DNA of 64,000 nucleotides from a virus. Its lineage: Duplodnaviria; Heunggongvirae; Uroviricota; Caudoviricetes. The notes beneath the pieces are model-generated. The model ran no database searches and was not told the origin of the DNA. It was given only the letters and a program-made list of their open reading frames with translations. The first letter of the stretch is position 1; each line of letters begins with the position of its first letter. Below are positions 23,499 through 55,437 of this stretch, piece after piece. The stretch lies in the IMG/VR virus record IMGVR_UViG_3300036790_000261, positions 24,725-88,724 of that record, one strand, 5' to 3'. The position numbers and the translations under genes were made by a program.

Positions 23499-26400
23499 GT
23501 GACCTCGACCCCCCCGAAGCCAAGCCTGCTCAAGTCCACCGCGCTCGCCCAGGCCACGGCGGTGGCCAACCGGCTGAACTCCCTGCTGCCCACGGTGCCG
23601 AGTGCCGAGTCGCCGGTCACCGTGTACCAGGCGGGCACCATCGGGGTGGGCGGGCAGCTGAGCGCGCCTACCTCGGTGTTCCCGGTCGGCACCGGCTATT
23701 ACGGGGTGTGGACGGCGCCGGACCTGAACGACGGCAAGCCGTACACGATGCAGGTGGAGTGCTTCGGCGGCGGCGGCGGCGGCGGGGGCGGGTCCTCCAC
23801 TTCGGGCGGCGGCGGCGGGGGCGGGGCTGAGTACGCCCGGGAGACCTCGTACCCGGTCAAGCCCGGCGTCAACTACGTCTACGTGGTGGGAGTACCCGGC
23901 TCGGCGGGCACGGCGAACAACGACGACAACCAGGGCGCGACCGCGGGCGGCACCGGGGGGCTGACCGTATTTGACATCGCCGGAAGCGGCGTCGCGGGCG
24001 GCGTGCAGGCCAACGGGGGCCAGGGCGGGGATGTCGGCAATACCGGCATCGGCGGGAACGGGGGCCTGGGCAGCTTCAACACCACTGAGTTCCAAGGTGG
24101 CCCGGGTGGTACCAACCTTCCAGGCGGCGGGGGCGGTTCCGGCGGCCAGGGCGGTACCGACAATCCCATCGCACTGCTGAACGCAGGGCTGCTGAGCTCG
24201 CCGCCGGTCGCCTGGTACCTGATGAACGACGCGTCGTCCAACGGGCAGCTGAACGACAACAGCGGCGACGACAACCCGGCTAACCCGGGCAGCTACGGCG
24301 GCGGCGGCCTCGCCTACGGGCAGCCGGGAGCCCCGTCCCAGGTCCCCGCGTACGTCAGCCCCGGCAACCCGCCGAGCTCCCCCAACCCGACGACCGCCGG
24401 AACCCAGCTGCGGTTCGTCCTCGCCCAGCTGAACCAGCAGTCCGGTTACGCGCTGTGCCCCGGCTTCGCCTTCTCCGGGCACCAGGTCACCGTCTCGGGC
24501 TGGGTGACCCCGGACCCGACGGGCACCTGGGGCAACACCGCGACCGGCTCGCGGGCGGTCATCGCCACTAACTGCACGGGGTACGCGAACTCCAGCACCG
24601 CGGGCGTCGCCCTGTACTTCAAGAACTCCGGCACCAGCGCTCACCCGAGCTGGACGCTGAACTTCTACTGCGCTAGCTCAGGCTCGCACCAGACGGTCAG
24701 CGTCAGCGTCCCGCCGGTCGCGAACACCCCGGTCTACGTGGCGGCCACCTTCAGCTCCGGCGCGATGACCGTGTACGTCAACGGCACCTCGGCGGGCACG
24801 GCCACCGCGGGCTTCAGCAGCCTGCCCGGCTTCCCGACGGTGCCGTTCGGCGTGACGCTGGGCGCGGACCCGCGGATCACCACCGACTGGTTCTTCGGCT
24901 ACATGTCCAACCTGTGGTTCTCGCCCGGCGTGCTGAGCTCAGCGGGCGTGACCCAGGCGTTCAGCGGCTCCGGCGGCAGCTCAACCGAGGGCGGGGCCGG
25001 CGGCGGCGCGTCGGGCGGGCCGGCGGCACTCGGCGGCGCCGGGGCGGCAGGCAGCGGGTCGACGGGCGGGGCCGGGGGGACACCCGCTACCCAGCCTGCG
25101 ACAGACGTCGGCCTGAACACCCCGGCCTCAGCGGGCATCGCGGGCGCGGCGGGTAACGCCGGCAACCCGGGTATCACCGGCGCGGCGGGCGCGGGCGGCG
25201 GCGGGGCAGGCAGCTCGACGTCACCCCCGAATATCGTCACCGTCCAGGTGCCGTTCGTCACGGCGGCCTCTTACTGCGGGACGGACGCGACCGGCGGCAG
25301 CGCGGGCACGGTGTACAACCCGGTCATCCAGGGCGCCACCGGGCGGCTGTTCACCGGCGGCCAGTCGCAGGACGCGGCATCGGGCTCCAAGAACTCTCTG
25401 CTGGTCCTGCCGCCCAGCCTGGCGGCCAGCCTGCAGCCGGGCAGCTTCACCGTGCTCCGGGTGACCCTGACGGTAACCAGCGCTAACCCGCAGGCGGCGC
25501 AGAACGCGCTGATGCAGGTCGGCTGGGCGGCCGACACGTTCCTGCCGATCACCTACGACGCGAGTGACACCGCGGGCTCGGCGGGCGTGGTGGAGATCCC
25601 GGCCGGGGCGTTCACCGTCACCGCGGACCTGACCGAGTCTCAGCTGGGCGCGTTCCTGCAAAACGGCGGCGCTAAGGCGCTGGTTCTCGGCCCTGGCCCC
25701 AGCCCGACCTTCGCCGCTTACAACTCCGACACCGCGGCTGACTTCTACACGGCTGTCTACGGGCCGGGCGCGGTAGACAGCGCGGGCAACAGCCTGGCCC
25801 CGTTCCTTACGGTCACCTACGCGCAGTCGACGACCGTGCAGCAGGGGTCGCCCGGCGGCGCGGGCGCGGTGCTGCTGACCTTCCTCAACCAGGCGCAGAC
25901 ACTGGTCGGCAACTGGACCGCCGCGGACGGCATCAACGCCTCCGGCGGCCAGCTCACTGAGACGACGGTCGTACTCGGCTCGACCTTGCAGGACGCTGCC
26001 CGGATGAACGCGATCCGCGAGCAGGTCAGGGCTGAGGTCAAGGCGGAGAACCGCGCGATGATCAGGGAGGCGATGGCCCGGCTCGGCTCGGTTCCGGGGG
26101 CGCCGGGCACCCTGCTCGGCTACACGGCGGGCATGACCACGGTTACCCAGACGACGCCGGGTACCTACACGTTCACCGTGCCTTCTGACGTCACCTCGCT
26201 GAGCGTCGCCTGCTGGGGCGCGGGCGCGGGCGCTACCGGGGGCAGCACCAGCCAGGGGCAGGGCGGCGGCGGCGGCGGCGCGTACGCGGGCGAGCCGAAC
26301 TACAACGCCGCCCCGGGTGACGTGCTCACTTACATTGTCGGGGCGGGCGGCGCCGGGGACCACGTCGGGTCGAATAATTCGCCGGACGGCGGGTTCAGCG

Positions 26401-50844: not shown

Positions 50845-51735
50845 ATGAGCATCACCCTGGCCTTCGATGCCACGCACCTGTTCATCGGCCAGCTGCCACG
50901 TGGCAGTCAGGCGTGCGGGTACGACACCGGCAGCAACGGGGTGGCCTGGACGGCCGCGGACTGGGCGGCGCACCCGGGCGCGGTGCACATCGACCAGGAC
51001 GTGCACGCTAGCGACTTCACCGCGGACGTGCTTGACTGCGAGAAGGGGGCAGTGCCTGTCGGGTCGGGACTGATCCCCCTGTGGGCTGAGTCTGCGCAGC
51101 ATAACTTCCGGCTAGCCGTCCGGCCTGGCCAGCGGATGCCGGCGATCTACTGCTCAGCCTCCAACGTGACCGCGAACGTCAACGCGCTGGTGCGCGGCGG
51201 GATCAAGGGCGGCGTCGGGCTGTGGGTAGCCAGCTGGGGGATCGGGCAGAACGCTGCGGTCGCTGACGTGCTGGCTGGCACGGGCCCGTTCCCGGTCATC
51301 GGCGTCCAGTTCTCGGACCTCGGTGACATCGACGCCGACGTGTTCAGCGACGCCTGGCTGGCGAACACCTCCCGGGTGCCGGTGCCGGCGCCGGCGTGGA
51401 CGTACGGGCCGGTGCGCGGGCTGCAGGTGGCCTCCGTCGGGCCCAGCTCGGTCAAGGTGAGCTTCAGCGCCCCGTCGGTGACCGTCCCCGCGGGCGTGGT
51501 GAACCCGGTCGGGATCGGCCGCTACGAGATCGCCGTCACCTTGGAGGGCAGCCCGGTCGACCTGAGTACCTACCCGCGGTTCCGGGTTAAGCGGCCTAAC
51601 CCGCAAGCTGAGCAGGTTGGCAGCCTCCCGCCGGGCACCGAGCTGACCGCCTGGGTACGAGCCTGGTCGACTGACCCCGGCGACTCGCACGCGGGCCCGT
51701 GGGCAACGGTTAACTTCGAGACGAAGACCGCATGA
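50845..51735 (+). CDS. putative glycoside-hydrolase-like protein with a C-terminal FN3-like region
   Basis: A TIM-barrel-like N-terminal half (GYDTG...VHIDQD...DCEKG). A palindrome copy lies at codons 17-21. A downstream GTG at about 50941 is an alternative start. Confidence 0.4.
   Translation: MSITLAFDATHLFIGQLPRGSQACGYDTGSNGVAWTAADWAAHPGAVHIDQDVHASDFTADVLDCEKGAVPVGSGLIPLWAESAQHNFRLAVRPGQRMPAIYCSASNVTANVNALVRGGIKGGVGLWVASWGIGQNAAVADVLAGTGPFPVIGVQFSDLGDIDADVFSDAWLANTSRVPVPAPAWTYGPVRGLQVASVGPSSVKVSFSAPSVTVPAGVVNPVGIGRYEIAVTLEGSPVDLSTYPRFRVKRPNPQAEQVGSLPPGTELTAWVRAWSTDPGDSHAGPWATVNFETKTA
50893..50906. promoter_or_regulatory. conserved palindrome core CTGCCACGTGGCAG, copy 5
   Basis: A 14-bp perfect core in the 5' region of 50845..51735. 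Confidence 0.4.
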
Positions 51736-51830
51736 CCTGGAACCCGGACCCCGGTTACGTGCTGATCTTGTCCGTTGTGTTCGCCGCGGCTGCCGCGACT
51801 GTCGCCCTGATGGTGCTGGGCGTTATCTGA
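51732..51830 (+). CDS. tiny membrane peptide (32 aa)
   Basis: ATGA overlap with the upstream gene. Hydrophobic. Confidence 0.3.
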   Translation: MTWNPDPGYVLILSVVFAAAAATVALMVLGVI

Positions 51831-51901
51831 GCCCCGTCCGCGAATTGAACGCGGGACCTCTTTCTTACCAAGAAAGCGCTCTTCCACTGAGCTAACGGGG
51901 C
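51830..51901 (-). tRNA. tRNA-Thr (anticodon GGT)
   Basis: Manual fold: acceptor GCCCCGT/ACGGGGC, D stem GCTC/GAGC, anticodon stem CTTTC/GAAAG with loop TTGGTAA, T arm CCGCG-TTCAATT-CGCGG. Confidence 0.7.
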
Positions 51902-51956
51902 GGGCAAGCGGGGCGCTCTGACCTTGGCGCGCGCAGAGAGGTTGGCCCCGCTTACG

Positions 51957-52091
51957 CTAGCGTTCTACCCGCTGGGTACCGCAGCACGGGCACCGGCCTG
52001 ACCCGTCGGTACTACGGCAGGTGCACCCGCAGCACCCGGGCCCGTAGTTGCCGTGCGTGCACCCGCAGTTCTTGCATACGGGATCACTCAC
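51957..52091 (-). CDS. tiny Cys-rich metallothionein-like peptide (44 aa, 10 Cys)
   Basis: MSDPVCKNCGCTHGNYGPGCCGCTCRSTDGSGRCPCCGTQRVER. Shine-Dalgarno GGAGGAAGAGC then GTGAG. It sits 16 nt after the previous peptide's stop. Confidence 0.45.
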   Translation of the reverse strand: MSDPVCKNCGCTHGNYGPGCCGCTCRSTDGSGRCPCCGTQRVER

Positions 52092-52107
52092 GCTCTTCCT
52101 CCGGGTT

Positions 52108-52248
52108 TTAGCATTCGAGGTGGCAGTCGTTGCTGTGCATGCCGCAGTGATCGAACCGCTTCGCCCCGCGGGCCTTGCACTCTGCGCAGCCGCACTTGCA
52201 CGACCCCTTATAGGGGCAGCTGCCGTTGCTCCCGCTTATCTCTCTCAC
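52108..52248 (-). CDS. tiny Cys-rich peptide (46 aa, 9 Cys)
   Basis: MREISGSNGSCPYKGSCKCGCAECKARGAKRFDHCGMHSNDCHLEC. Shine-Dalgarno CAGGAGGAAAAC then GTGAG. Confidence 0.45.
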   Translation of the reverse strand: MREISGSNGSCPYKGSCKCGCAECKARGAKRFDHCGMHSNDCHLEC

Positions 52249-52302
52249 GTTTTCCTCCTGAAAAGTTGGTGGGCCCCCGCCAATTCCCATGACGGGGGCC
52301 CG

Positions 52303-52375
52303 ATGTCACCGGGGGACTTGAACCCCCAACTTCAGTCTCCAGAGGACTGCGCGCTTCCGATTGCGCCAGGTGTCG
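52303..52375 (-). tRNA. tRNA-like, Gln (CTG) anticodon arm, imperfect acceptor stem (possible pseudo-tRNA)
   Basis: D stem GCGC/GCGC, anticodon stem CAGTC/GACTG with loop CTCTGGA, T arm GGGGG-TTCAAGT-CCCCC. The acceptor has two mismatches. Confidence 0.3.
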
Positions 52376-52419
52376 GTTGGTGCCCTCATGATCGTTGAGG
52401 GACAGCAGCTCTTGCGAGG

Positions 52420-52492
52420 GGTAACGCTCTGCCGACTGAGCTAAGGGACCATGCTGGAGGTCCCTCGGGGGGTCGAACCCCGGACCTTTACC
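52420..52492 (-). ncRNA. rearranged or permuted tRNA-like element (3' half, then CCA-GCAT, then 5' half)
   Basis: A 3' half (GGTAA-AGGTC-CGGGG-TTCGACC-CCCCG-AGGGACC-T-CCA) lies immediately upstream of a 5' half (GGTCCCT-TA-GCTC-AGTCGGC-AGAGC-G-TTACC). The two halves would form a complete cloverleaf except for the anticodon loop. Confidence 0.35.
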
Positions 52493-52638
52493 TTGCACTG
52501 CTGACCTCGCGGGGAGGGCCTCACGGCTAACGGCTCGAAGGACAAGGAGCTTCCGGCTTATCAGCACGGCTCCCGGCTAACGGCATCTGCTAGGTCCTTA
52601 CACCAGTAACACTACCCGACACCGGGCGCAAAGGCAAA

Positions 52639-52698
52639 CCCGGCTCACGAGGCGCTCCGTCAGTGGGCGACGTCTTCACCATGGCCTCGTGAGCCGGG
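52639..52698 (-). terminator. long hairpin (14-bp stem, 32-nt loop) downstream of the reverse-strand gene 52862..53629
   Basis: CCCGGCTCACGAGG ... CCTCGTGAGCCGGG is a perfect inverted repeat. Confidence 0.35.
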
Positions 52699-52861
52699 CC
52701 TGGTTAGTCCTCGGTGTCGATGAACAGCGTGCCGGTCTCCTCGTCCCAGGACAGTCCCTGGATGTTCGTCCACCGCCCGGCCACGTTGACCATGACGTGG
52801 GAGAGGGGCCCTGAAGCGTGGCTAACCGCCTGGTCAATCTCCAGCAGCAGCTCGTCGGGAC

Positions 52862-53629
52862 TCACGGCGCGGTCAGCCAGCCGAAGATGTCGGCGCCCTC
52901 GTTCAGCGGGGTGACCGTCGCCGAGTTCGCCTCCTCGCGGGCCATCTTCACCGCGGTGCGCAGCTTCGACAGCCGCTCCAGCAGCAGGGCCTTACGCTGG
53001 CGGGGCAGCGCGCCGGAGTAGTTCACCGTGCTGTTGTACTCGACGACCTGGTCGCGGGTCGTGACGTCTACCTGCTCCTGGAACTTGTCGGTACCGTTGC
53101 CGCGGTGCCAGTTGAACATGACCTTTTCCTTCTTGTCACCTTCCTGGGGCACCCTGGAGCGCCACTGTCCGGGCTCGGCGTTCTCGTCGGTCCAGTCCTG
53201 CACCGCGTCCAGCTCGGGGAGCGCGGTGACGAGGGTCTGCAGCTTGGTGAGCTCGCCCTCCAGGTACACCAGGTGCCGCACCGGGACGCCCGTCAGGACC
53301 GTGTCACCGTCGACCACCACGTCGGCCTTCGCGGCGCCCTGCGCGGTGTCCAGCGTCAGCGCGGTGTCCCACTTGCCGGTGAGCAGCTTCGCCGCGTCGT
53401 CCATCGCCTGCACCGCGGTGTAGCGAACCCGGGTGACCTGATCCGGCGTCACCTTACGGCGCGGTCCCTTGTTGTCCTTGTCGGGCTCGTCCGCCAGCCG
53501 GGACTTCTTCTCCATCCCGCTGAACAGTTCCTTGGTACCCAGGATGTGCGTCAGCCGGGCCAGGGACGTCTCCGCGTCGGTGCTCAGCCCGCCGATGATC
53601 GCGAGCAGCTGGTGAACCCTTACCGCCAT
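52862..53629 (-). CDS. hypothetical protein (256 aa)
   Basis: The chosen start is an internal ATG with GAGGAG upstream. The annotated GTG 53677 start would overlap the next mini-gene. Confidence 0.5.
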   Translation of the reverse strand: MAVRVHQLLAIIGGLSTDAETSLARLTHILGTKELFSGMEKKSRLADEPDKDNKGPRRKVTPDQVTRVRYTAVQAMDDAAKLLTGKWDTALTLDTAQGAAKADVVVDGDTVLTGVPVRHLVYLEGELTKLQTLVTALPELDAVQDWTDENAEPGQWRSRVPQEGDKKEKVMFNWHRGNGTDKFQEQVDVTTRDQVVEYNSTVNYSGALPRQRKALLLERLSKLRTAVKMAREEANSATVTPLNEGADIFGWLTAP

Positions 53630-54649: not shown

Positions 54650-54982
54650 GCGTTCCAGTTGTCGCGCTGGCGGGTGAGTAAGGCGTTACCCTTGTGGGCT
54701 TCGAAGTAGCAGTGGCCTTACGGGTGATGGAGCCCCCGGCCGGAATCGTACCGGCCACTCAGCGCTACCCGCATGCGATCGCCTGCGAAGTAATCGAGAT
54801 CCTCAAGGAGGGGGCAGGGGTGCCGCCGCCGGTGACTTCCCTGTCAGGTGCCTGCCGTCCCGGGTTGGGAGCGAGACAGCTAGCGTGTTAGCCGGCGGCG
54901 GCGGCGCGGGGCCGGGGTTCCACCGGCACTGACACTCCCTATCCGGAGCTGCCTCTCCTTGGGCTACCCGCGCGTTCCTGGT

Positions 54983-55047
54983 CCCGCAAGCCCGGCCCTG
55001 GCTAGCACACTCGTACTCGTACGGCCAGCCAGGGCCGGGCTTGCGGG
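54983..55047. terminator. strong hairpin (20-bp perfect stem, 25-nt loop) in an apparently non-coding 540-bp region
   Basis: CCCGCAAGCCCGGCCCTGGC ... GCCAGGGCCGGGCTTGCGGG. Confidence 0.35.
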
Positions 55048-55189
55048 AGACGGCAGGGCCTGAACAGGAAAGTATGGGCCGCCCTGGATCGCCCCGCCGT
55101 CTGGTATCAGTTTACCTGTGTCCTGCTGTGTGTCAAACGCGAACCTGTGATACTCCACTGGGGCGTAGTTTCATTAGGCCTCGTAAGAA

Positions 55190-55435
55190 CCATGTCCCCG
55201 GCGTGTTGTCAATAGTGTTCGCTTGGTTATTAGCCGGGGCGTGATGACGTGTGGTTCGCGCTAGTGCTCTGGCCCCGGCGAGATAAGCTTGGAGCTCGTA
55301 CGTCAAGTGGCCGGGGCGTAGCTATTTTGGGTTACGTCCTACCGCTGGCCCCGGCGTTCTCGATTTGGCGCTCGCCGTAAATGTGGCCGGGGCGTGCCTC
55401 AGTTAGTTCTCGTTCCGTCGATGTCCCCGGCCGCC
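55190..55435. repeat. 38-bp periodic repeat array 2 (7 units)
   Basis: GC decamers at about 55194, 55232, 55271, 55309, 55347, 55385 and 55423, alternating CCCC and GGGG centres. The array ends at the stop of 55438..55794. Confidence 0.6.
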
Positions 55436-55437
55436 TG

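Follow-up and report, generated by a model that had tools for sequence, protein, structure and literature searches.

A loop-closed tRNA-like module beside the DUF7873 gene of a phage, probably part of a YrlA-like RNA

The locus and the fold of the module

The element described here lies in a stretch of viral DNA of 64,000 nucleotides (hereafter the window), positions 24,725 to 88,724 of the IMG/VR record IMGVR_UViG_3300036790_000261 (Caudoviricetes). It is a module resembling a transfer RNA (tRNA) on the minus strand, part of an RNA whose immediate upstream neighbour, on the same strand, is a gene of the protein family DUF7873. A unit called as tRNA-Gln follows the module. The features of the locus are collected in Table 1. 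Read on the minus strand from 52492 to 52420, the module is GGTAA-AGGTC-CGGGG-TTCGACC-CCCCG-AGGGACC-T-CCA-GCAT-GGTCCCT-TA-GCTC-AGTCGGCA-GAGC-G-TTACC (coordinates checked by script). An earlier note on this DNA had described a tRNA 3' half, complete through CCA, placed 4 nt upstream of its matching 5' half, and the sequence reads exactly in this way. The complementarity claimed for the two halves was confirmed as well, with 7/7 Watson-Crick pairs between the acceptor strands and 5/5 between the anticodon-stem strands.

When positions 52510..52399 were folded with RNAfold, the halves paired, and the T arm, the acceptor hairpin, the D arm, the closing helix and an outer helix were all recovered (-46.4 kcal/mol, z = -2.47). 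The outer end of the closing stem continues into other RNA domains and not into an anticodon loop: its flanks are UGCAA and, on the opposite side, C-CUCGCAAGAG, and beyond them lies the CAGCAG/CUGCUG helix. In the related locus L004, a helix ACGGTAG/CTGCCGT is found at the matching place. The mini-hairpin is likewise kept in relatives, as CTC-GGAA-GAG in L001 and, with a compensatory change, as GTC-GCAA-GAC in L004. Two pairs of flanking blocks had been pointed out earlier. One of them, CAGCAG/CTGCTG, does pair; the other, GCGAGG/CCTCGC, competes with the covarying mini-hairpin CTC-GCAA-GAG and was set aside.

ARAGORN called four tRNAs elsewhere in the window and no tRNA or transfer-messenger RNA (tmRNA) at the module. 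The Rfam tRNA model gave no match at 52420-52492, where the acceptor end is closed by UCCAGCAU and an anticodon loop is absent, and no Rfam tmRNA family matched at E<=10. A permissive Rfam scan of 51600-53000 returned YrlA ('Y RNA-like', RF02553) as the sole non-tRNA family of note. The match spans the full model (52399-52504, minus strand) with 36.3 bits and an E value of 6.2e-6, the gathering score being 69. An exact 25-mer of the element was absent from IMG/VR, and near and distant DNA searches against the INPHARED phages, made with the region and with 24 kb of the window, matched the neighbouring tRNA-Thr alone.

Table 1. Features of the locus in the window and of related loci on other contigs
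Feature	Position	Strand	Basis or remark
DUF7873 gene, 255 aa, start at Met17 of the longest open reading frame (ORF)	52862..53629	minus	Pfam PF25283, E 7e-57
GC-rich long hairpin after the DUF7873 stop codon, then TTTGCCTTTG	52639..52700	minus	read from sequence; candidate terminator of the protein gene
TAGTGT, -10-like hexamer (TANNNT)	52609..52614	minus	same column in relatives; putative promoter
Conserved 5' domain of the RNA, 98 nt	52505..52602	minus	kept in L001 and L004
Outer helix, 5' strand CAGCAG	52498..52503	minus	pairs with 52403-52408 in the minimum-energy fold
Closed-acceptor tRNA-like module	52420..52492	minus	Rfam YrlA match; 71.5 bits with family model R1, of which the window is a seed member
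Anticodon-stem 3' strand GGTAA, then 5-nt variable loop AGGTC	52492-52488	minus	
Canonical T arm CGGGG-TTCGACC-CCCCG	52482-52466	minus	
Acceptor hairpin AGGGACC-UCCAGCAU-GGUCCCU	52444-52465	minus	
Acceptor 3' strand AGGGACC	52465-52459	minus	
Loop closing the acceptor stem: discriminator U, CCA, then GCAU (T-CCA-GCAT)	52458-52451	minus	
Acceptor 5' strand GGTCCCT, then TA = U8-A9	52450-52444	minus	
Canonical D arm GCTC-AGTCGGCA-GAGC, then G	52441-52426	minus	
Anticodon-stem 5' strand TTACC	52424-52420	minus	
Mini-hairpin CUC-GCAA-GAG, GNRA-type tetraloop	52409..52418	minus	compensatory change in relatives
Outer helix, 3' strand CUGCUG	52403..52408	minus	same fold; counterpart in L004
Conserved linker with CCTCAACG	52376..52402	minus	alignments A3 and A7, bacterial alignment
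Third unit, 74-nt tRNA-like domain called tRNA-Gln(CUG)	52302..52375	minus	ARAGORN; Rfam tRNA, 49.4 bits
9-bp GC hairpin GGGCCCCCG...CGGGGGCCC, then ACCAACTTTT	52271..52301	minus	position kept in A3 and A7; putative terminator
Orthologous third units	L093 3530-3604; L094 3670-3743; L096 3479-3551; L095 2329-2400; L098 3573-3646; L102 3583-3657; L114 3588-3657; L130 3566-3637; L147 3556-3626; L150 3602-3672		
Closed modules in viral tRNA islands, no DUF7873 detected in the DNA available	L190 1773-1845; L271 1155-1223; L187 4052-4126; L206 11209-11278		no overlapping ARAGORN tRNA

The alignments place the module, as one domain, within a longer conserved RNA, and we are reasonably confident that this is a structured, so far unannotated non-coding RNA of ~330 nt, which would run from about 52600 to 52270 on the minus strand; these transcript limits are putative. 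In the clade of the window, the order is TANNNT, the 98-nt 5' domain, the module, the CCTCAACG linker, the 'tRNA-Gln' (52375-52302) and the 9-bp GC hairpin. The -10-like column of alignment A3 reads TAGTGT/TAGTGT/TAAGCT/TAGAGT/TAAACT/TAGTAT in its six loci. No match to the sigma-70 consensus was found, and a simple promoter and terminator scan of 52150-52950 was negative. Neither hairpin was called by it as a terminator, that behind the protein gene because its loop is too long.

The 5' domain contains two exact direct repeats of GCCGTTAGCC, at 52584-52575 and 52534-52525 (minus strand), which are conserved in L001 and L004. One of them is what had earlier been taken for a degenerate copy of the tRNA 5' half; it belongs to this conserved domain and is not a decayed tRNA half. 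No complementary partner was found for the repeats, which could be binding sites for a protein or an RNA. At the corresponding places, relatives have repeated (C/T)T(C/A)AGC or CTGA motifs. Candidate helices in the domain are AAGGAC/GTCCTT and GGGAGC/GCTCC. By means of the short GGGAGC...GCTCC hairpin, the 5' domain appears to stand in, in the window clade, for module 1 of relatives that have two modules. The bacterial counterpart of the 5' domain shows covariation, from GAGCG/CGCTC to GAGTG/CACTC and GAGTA/TACTC.

Relatives, linkage to DUF7873 and covariation

The DUF7873 protein of the window is 100% identical to P0001, a protein from a 'Trebonia sp.' metagenome-assembled genome. Its 122,349-bp contig, DASXDZ010000073.1 (also JGI 3300037258), carries phage structural genes. 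The family comprises 2631 clusters at 50% identity, with 767+ relatives in 90% clusters; among the 150 listed of the 2631 clusters, nearly all proteins are of ~245 aa and single-domain. Sequence searches in PHROGs, NCBIfam and the PDB returned nothing, no fold or function match was found, and no paper on DUF7873 was found in the literature. At least 593 DUF7873 matches were obtained in species-representative bacterial genomes. They belong mostly to Actinomycetes, and further carriers are Sorangium, Ktedonobacterales, Chthonomonadales and Armatimonadetes. A second IMG/VR scan gave at least 162 viral contigs with DUF7873. Cultured phages with the gene include those of Gordonia (Phendrix, GodonK, Fryberger, Ronaldo and others), Rhodococcus (NiceHouse) and Arthrobacter (Mimi and Racecar), together with Pseudanabaena, Vibrio, Rhizobium and Ralstonia phages. 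In the GenBank phage records the gene is a 'hypothetical protein'; 350-580 nt without annotation separate it from the tRNAs that come next.

A first IMG/VR protein scan had yielded seven loci, and reading of their sequences revealed modules in 7/7, often two in tandem. A weak Rfam YrlA match lies just downstream of DUF7873 in L001, L004, L005 and L006, whose proteins have identities of 65, 68, 32 and 29%. The acceptor stems differ from locus to locus by fully compensatory changes, being AGGGACC/GGTCCCT in the window, CGCCCCG/CGGGGCG in L001, GGGGACC/GGTCCCC in L004 and CGGGTCG/CGACCCG in L002, and the closing stem of the closest relatives alternates between GGTAA/TTACC and GGTGA/TCACC. An ordinary intact tRNA at this place in homologous phages would have spoken against the permuted arrangement. 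L001, L004 and L002 show the same arrangement and no intact tRNA.

In order to survey further loci, a covariance model (R1) was built from 23 modules, the window and L001 being in the seed. In 80 bacterial DUF7873 loci it gave 140 matches at E<=1e-3, all of them on the strand of the gene and downstream of it. At least one module was present in 77/80 loci, and 62 loci had two or more. Bacterial modules typically lie ~90 and ~240 nt past the stop codon, and the RNA ~75-110 nt after it. A regular-expression search of viral DUF7873 loci revealed at least one module in 76/79. This positional constancy and the strand bias are independent of selection by regular expression, of model fitting and of seed membership. 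The module is linked to DUF7873 and placed inside phage tRNA islands.

The bacterial RNA is of ~400 nt and is ordered as a hairpin, GGAGCGCAAGCTGAAACTGAAG, module 1 (D arm TAGCCCAAC-GGCAGAGGC), TCAGACTCTCGCTCCAGATTCAGC..., module 2, ...CTTAAACG..., a small hairpin and a terminator-like hairpin. Relatives carry CCTTAAACG after their last closed module. In cultured phages, two modules were found in the unannotated gap after the DUF7873 homologue of Phendrix (R1 67.5 and 60.9 bits) and of Fryberger (46 and 48.9 bits). These two-module RNAs lie at ~80,900-81,390 of MN096369.1 and at ~60,330-60,910 of MH479913.1, respectively, in stretches without GenBank annotation. In Phendrix, the gene and the RNA stand in the middle of an array of ~20 tRNA genes.

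The base pairs of the module covary. In a MAFFT alignment of 44 non-redundant modules, picked with a regular expression that required at least 6/7 acceptor pairs and at least 4/5 T-stem pairs, 97.5% of the cells pair, compared with 68% after shuffling and 39-49% when the partner was slid by 1-3 columns. Changes on both sides were seen in 7/7 acceptor pairs and 4/5 T-stem pairs, and the covariation score was 0.758 vs 0.215. Among 125 distinct bacterial matches, aligned by fitting to the model structure (alignment A5), both partners vary in 20/21 pairs, and 83% of the closing-stem cells are paired. The tertiary 15:48 pair, tallied on modules from a regular expression requiring pairing, is G:C in 13, A:U in 119 and other in 2 (G:C or A:U in 132/134). 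A14 is kept in 150/152 modules and the GG of the D loop in 140/152. With U8, A14, the D-loop GG, a TTCRA T loop and the covarying 15:48 pair, the nucleotides of the tRNA L shape are retained. Of the bacterial modules 27%, and of the viral ones 37%, have CCA after the discriminator; most others have CUN.

As a negative control, an IMG/VR pattern scan with GGTTCGANNCC...CCA...TAGCYCA was used, in which the matches listed were mostly true tRNA-tRNA junctions; exclusivity of the DUF7873 link could not be shown with the matches listed. Among these, 137 real tight tRNA junctions showed acceptor complementarity of 7/7 in 0 cases and of 6/7 in 7. The arrangement is beyond chance, given this result of 0/137 and its recurrence at a syntenic position with compensatory changes.

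Comparison with YrlA and weighing of the alternatives

YrlA RNAs combine a Ro60-binding stem containing GNCGAAN0-1G with a tRNA-like domain in which a T arm, a loop-closed acceptor-like stem and a D arm follow one another (PMC4201824). In M. smegmatis YrlA, the acceptor stem is of 7 bp; RNase P cleaves this RNA both in vitro and in vivo, and it bears a CCA end. YrlAs show G15:C48 / A15:U48 covariation, and the published ones are encoded on the strand of rsr, no more than ~4 kb from it (PMC4201824; for the structure, bioRxiv 10.1101/312249). The topology of the module is that of the YrlA tRNA-like domain: T arm, loop-closed 7-bp acceptor stem, D arm and, in the place of the anticodon stem, a 5-bp closing stem. 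The elbow nucleotides and the 15:48 covariation are shared too, the stem has the length found in M. smegmatis, and both RNAs occur in actinobacteria and their phages.

The two RNAs differ in other respects. The score of the window is about half of the 69-bit gathering score, and relatives reach 27-39 bits. The constant neighbour is DUF7873, upstream and on the same strand, instead of rsr/TROVE. The relatives linked to DUF7873 usually have two tandem modules in a ~400-nt RNA with other conserved domains, and the window clade adds a third, open tRNA-like unit with a variable 'anticodon'. Since the tRNA-like domain is present and the other features that define YrlA are absent, the RNA was likened to the YrlA tRNA mimic and not filed in the Ro60-linked family. 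In Rfam and in the literature, the coverage of which was incomplete (YrlA or Y RNA in phages; tRNA-like RNAs in Streptomyces and Actinobacteria), no description of a DUF7873-linked RNA was found.

Other known systems share parts of the design. In permuted tRNA genes (Cyanidioschyzon merolae, some archaea), the 3' half is also encoded upstream of the 5' half with a short linker. There, a bulge-helix-bulge motif, a splicing endonuclease and a ligase regenerate the anticodon loop and decoding tRNAs result, whereas the module has neither anticodon loop nor bulge-helix-bulge, occurs in a bacterial and phage setting, and has flanks that continue into RNA domains. Two-piece tmRNA (alpha-proteobacteria, cyanobacteria and others) likewise runs from T arm to acceptor 3' strand with CCA, loop and acceptor 5' strand, and excision of the intervening loop leaves a base-paired, two-piece tRNA-like domain. 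The module differs from it in lacking a tag reading frame and pseudoknots, and its D arm is full and canonical, which is not so in tmRNA. The mascRNA and menRNA of MALAT1 and MEN-beta are also tRNA-like structures within a longer non-coding transcript and are recognised by RNase P (here, cleavage would be predicted); unlike the closed and permuted module, they are eukaryotic, have the normal strand order and an open acceptor end, and serve 3'-end formation.

It is considered likely that the element is a YrlA-like tRNA mimic within the ~330-nt RNA, probably cut by RNase P and probably partnered by DUF7873. The RNA would fold like the body of a tRNA and might be handled by tRNA enzymes. RNase P is predicted to cut 5' of GGUCCCU because a 7-bp stem is combined with an N-C-Y/C-A tail; following the precedent of M. 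smegmatis YrlA and given the enrichment of C-C/U-A behind the discriminator, the cut would fall between 52451 and 52450, 5' of G52450. The 3' side would be trimmed to CCA or would already end in it, and the product would be a base-paired split tRNA mimic of the kind shown experimentally for M. smegmatis YrlA. The conserved adjacency of gene and RNA makes DUF7873 the probable protein partner, and the two could form a ribonucleoprotein as Y RNAs do with Ro60. Phages may carry the RNA in their tRNA islands for a tRNA-centred purpose, candidates being the recruiting or decoying of tRNA-binding enzymes or toxins, and RNA quality control or surveillance.

Several points weigh against this reading. 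RNase P cleavage, promoter, terminator and DUF7873 partnership are all things that we infer. The DUF7873 proteins are mildly acidic (median isoelectric point ~6), and no recognisable RNA-binding fold was found in them. The picking of modules by pairing and the fitting of rows to the model, described above with the covariation counts, belong here as well. The close relative L004 has UCCGCAU, so CCA is not universal. True junctions reach ~52 bits with R1 (L270 Arg/Thr, L219 Pro/Gly), which means that the R1 score alone does not separate modules from tight tRNA junctions; modules are told apart by acceptor strands complementary to each other, by a closing stem, by the lack of the other tRNA halves, and by synteny. 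Closed modules were also found in viral contigs in whose available DNA no DUF7873 was detected. The module is thus not exclusive to DUF7873 and could have a wider use as a building block of phage tRNA regions. Finally, 58 kb of the 122-kb source contig lie outside the window.

The module might instead be a cis-acting processing or stability element, that is, tRNA-like punctuation for RNase P (with RNase Z or exonucleases) on a transcript of DUF7873 and the tRNA island, without a trans-acting ribonucleoprotein. It would then resemble mascRNA at the MALAT1 3' end and the tRNA punctuation of organelles. The constant location of the RNA 3' of the gene, on the same strand and, in bacteria, at the short distance given above, agrees with such a role, as do a stem and a C-Y/C-A tail that suit RNase P and the placement inside phage tRNA arrays. 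However, ~400 nt of extra conserved sequence, two modules, inter-module motifs and elbow nucleotides are not needed for processing, and an RNase P cut would fall in the middle of the module and not at its edge. In the window clade, moreover, a conserved -10-like element and a hairpin separate the gene from the RNA, which suggests that the RNA has its own transcript. This explanation is regarded as unlikely.

An ordinary YrlA Y RNA, working with a Ro60 protein (Rsr) encoded elsewhere in the phage or host genome, would account for the single, full-length Rfam match and for the shared topology, stem length and 15:48 covariation, and the part of the source contig beyond the window would offer room for the gene. 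Against it stand the scores of the window and its relatives, which are far below the gathering score, and the constant neighbour, which is DUF7873 and not rsr. Neither the window RNA nor L001, L004 or L002 contains the Ro60 motif GNCGAAN0-1G. Among bacterial upstream stretches 19/128 have it, where 5.7 would be expected, and it is thus not conserved. No TROVE domain was found in the window ORFs of at least 400 aa, nor is one on record for the ~37-40 genes called within 10 kb on either side. The same holds within 6 kb in two bacterial chromosomes (Actinoalloteichus and Nocardia). In the complete 67-kb genome of Fryberger, which has the two-module RNA, there is no Ro-like annotation and no TROVE in the long unannotated proteins. 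We consider this explanation quite improbable.

The earlier note's tRNA-like unit with a circularly permuted strand order stands, but the three origins that it had offered for the unit (a decayed tandem duplication, a permuted tRNA gene and a recombination scar) do not. A remnant of two tandem tRNA genes would consist of a 3' half, a 4-nt spacer and the next 5' half. Searches for YrlA are known to pick up dimeric tRNAs by mistake (Chen et al. 2014, PMC4201824), the region is rich in tRNAs, and R1 gives real junctions up to ~52 bits. Here, however, the halves are mutually complementary, with the 7/7 acceptor pairs that were seen in 0/137 real junctions among the matches listed, and the 5-bp closing stem is formed by the flanks. 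No 5' half lies upstream and no 3' half downstream, and neither ARAGORN nor the Rfam tRNA model detected anything. Bacteria and phages alike keep the arrangement, with covariation and compensatory changes, in the majority of the 159 loci sampled (140 module matches in bacteria). A decayed duplication is a very improbable origin.

Two-piece tmRNAs have the same gene order as the module. A truly permuted tRNA gene of the Cyanidioschyzon or archaeal kind, or a two-piece tmRNA-like gene, the transcript of which is processed into a functional adaptor, would explain why a 3' half with encoded CCA precedes the 5' half in one transcript, and phage tmRNA genes do lie near the related loci L007 and L187. 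The conserved flanks, however, yield no 7-nt anticodon loop, and a helix and a GNRA-type hairpin take the place of a bulge-helix-bulge. No endonuclease that cuts the bulge-helix-bulge motif is known from bacteria. Within 10 kb to either side, the records show no family of splicing endonucleases or RNA ligases (RtcB included), and CCA is encoded in about one third of the family members. As for tmRNA, ARAGORN, which detects permuted tmRNAs, was negative, like the Rfam tmRNA families at the threshold given above, and the 44 nt between the module and the next tRNA-like unit leave no room for a tag reading frame. A gene of either type is highly doubtful. Phage att sites often overlap tRNA 3' ends, but a recombination scar or an attP derived from a host tRNA gene is scarcely credible here: no integrase or recombinase family is on record among the genes called within 10 kb on either side, bacterial chromosomes and large phages of lytic type have the same structure with a constant spacing behind the DUF7873 gene, and the covariation speaks of selection on RNA structure and not of DNA identity with a host tRNA.

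Beyond the element itself, a wider idea is put forward tentatively, as something that may well not hold. DUF7873 and the RNA downstream of it could form an unrecognised, widespread, Ro60-independent ribonucleoprotein system, a Y-RNA analogue with as many as three units shaped like tRNA (a closed pair that RNase P would cut, and an open one with a fast-changing 'anticodon'). Its users would be many large phages and bacteria from several phyla, in conflicts centred on tRNA or in the surveillance of RNA. Among bacterial Y RNAs, mimicry of tRNA is known solely in partnership with Ro60, and the DUF7873-linked RNA has the same kind of domain beside a different, uncharacterised and very common neighbour. 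If RNA and protein cooperate, this would be a second, independent closed-acceptor tRNA-mimic system, in which the role of the mimic could be studied without Ro60. The idea is directly testable because cultured Gordonia, Rhodococcus and Arthrobacter phages, as well as culturable Nocardia and Streptomyces, carry the system. For annotation, the consequences are that the RNA region is blank in GenBank phage records and that the third unit is labelled an ordinary tRNA although its 'anticodon' changes freely among orthologous loci.

The third unit and minor observations

The third unit is probably part of the same transcript as the module, forming its 3' domain. Its acceptor stem is imperfect, as had been remarked earlier of the neighbouring Gln-like tRNA: C1xA72 and A3xA70 are mismatched, giving two non-pairs under the Rfam tRNA model, and C1xA72 is common to the window and its closest relatives. 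The orthologous third units have similar bodies and different anticodons (ctg, tcg, tag, atg, tat, gtt, ctt, gta, gct, tgt). L130, L147 and L150 have one near-identical body with the anticodons GCT, TGT and ATG, respectively. Bacterial tRNAs for Leu, Ser and Tyr have long variable arms, and the third units with Leu, Ser and Tyr anticodons have bodies of 70-74 nt without such an arm. The variation of the anticodon and these short bodies suggest, as a lead rather than a conclusion, that the 'anticodon' is free of the ordinary decoding constraint and hypervariable, and that the unit would be a tRNA-like domain and not an ordinary decoder.

On other contigs, two observations were made in the surroundings of closed modules. 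In L206, an AT-rich viral contig, a ROOL RNA (8971-9618, Rfam 298 bits) is followed within 20 nt by a closed module at 9638-9741 (R1 56.4 bits, no ARAGORN tRNA), and no DUF7873 was found in 13 kb. Phage tmRNA genes were noted in L007 (1141-1416, 38.6 bits) and L187 (2077-2420, 53.3 bits), both scores being from Rfam; a few kb separate them from the DUF7873 RNA or from closed modules.

Within the window, a weak second module-like match was obtained at 54696-54765 on the minus strand (R1 19 bits, E 0.0025; Rfam YrlA 20.3 bits, E 0.59). Its region, 54677-54785 (minus), belongs to the gene-free stretch 54650-55437 and has a degenerate T arm, GGCCGG-TACGATT-CCGGCC. About 100 nt upstream of the match, at 54882-54874 (minus), there is a TCTCGCTCC motif resembling the bacterial inter-module motif. 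The match may be a decayed copy or due to chance.

The intergenic region 55110-55400 (minus) contains repeated CGCCCCGGCC...GCCGGGGCC hairpins with loops of ~30 nt as well as several TTGAC(A/G) boxes of promoter type, one of them in TTGACA-N16-TAAACT. The array resembles a promoter/operator cluster reading along the minus strand. Directly after the terminator-like hairpin of the RNA, an ORF at 52108-52248 (minus), with a strong AGGAGG ribosome-binding site and a GTG start, encodes a peptide of ~46 aa with 8 cysteines (MREISGSNGSCPYKGSCKCGCAECK...), and a similar Cys-rich ORF follows the RNA in L001 and L004.

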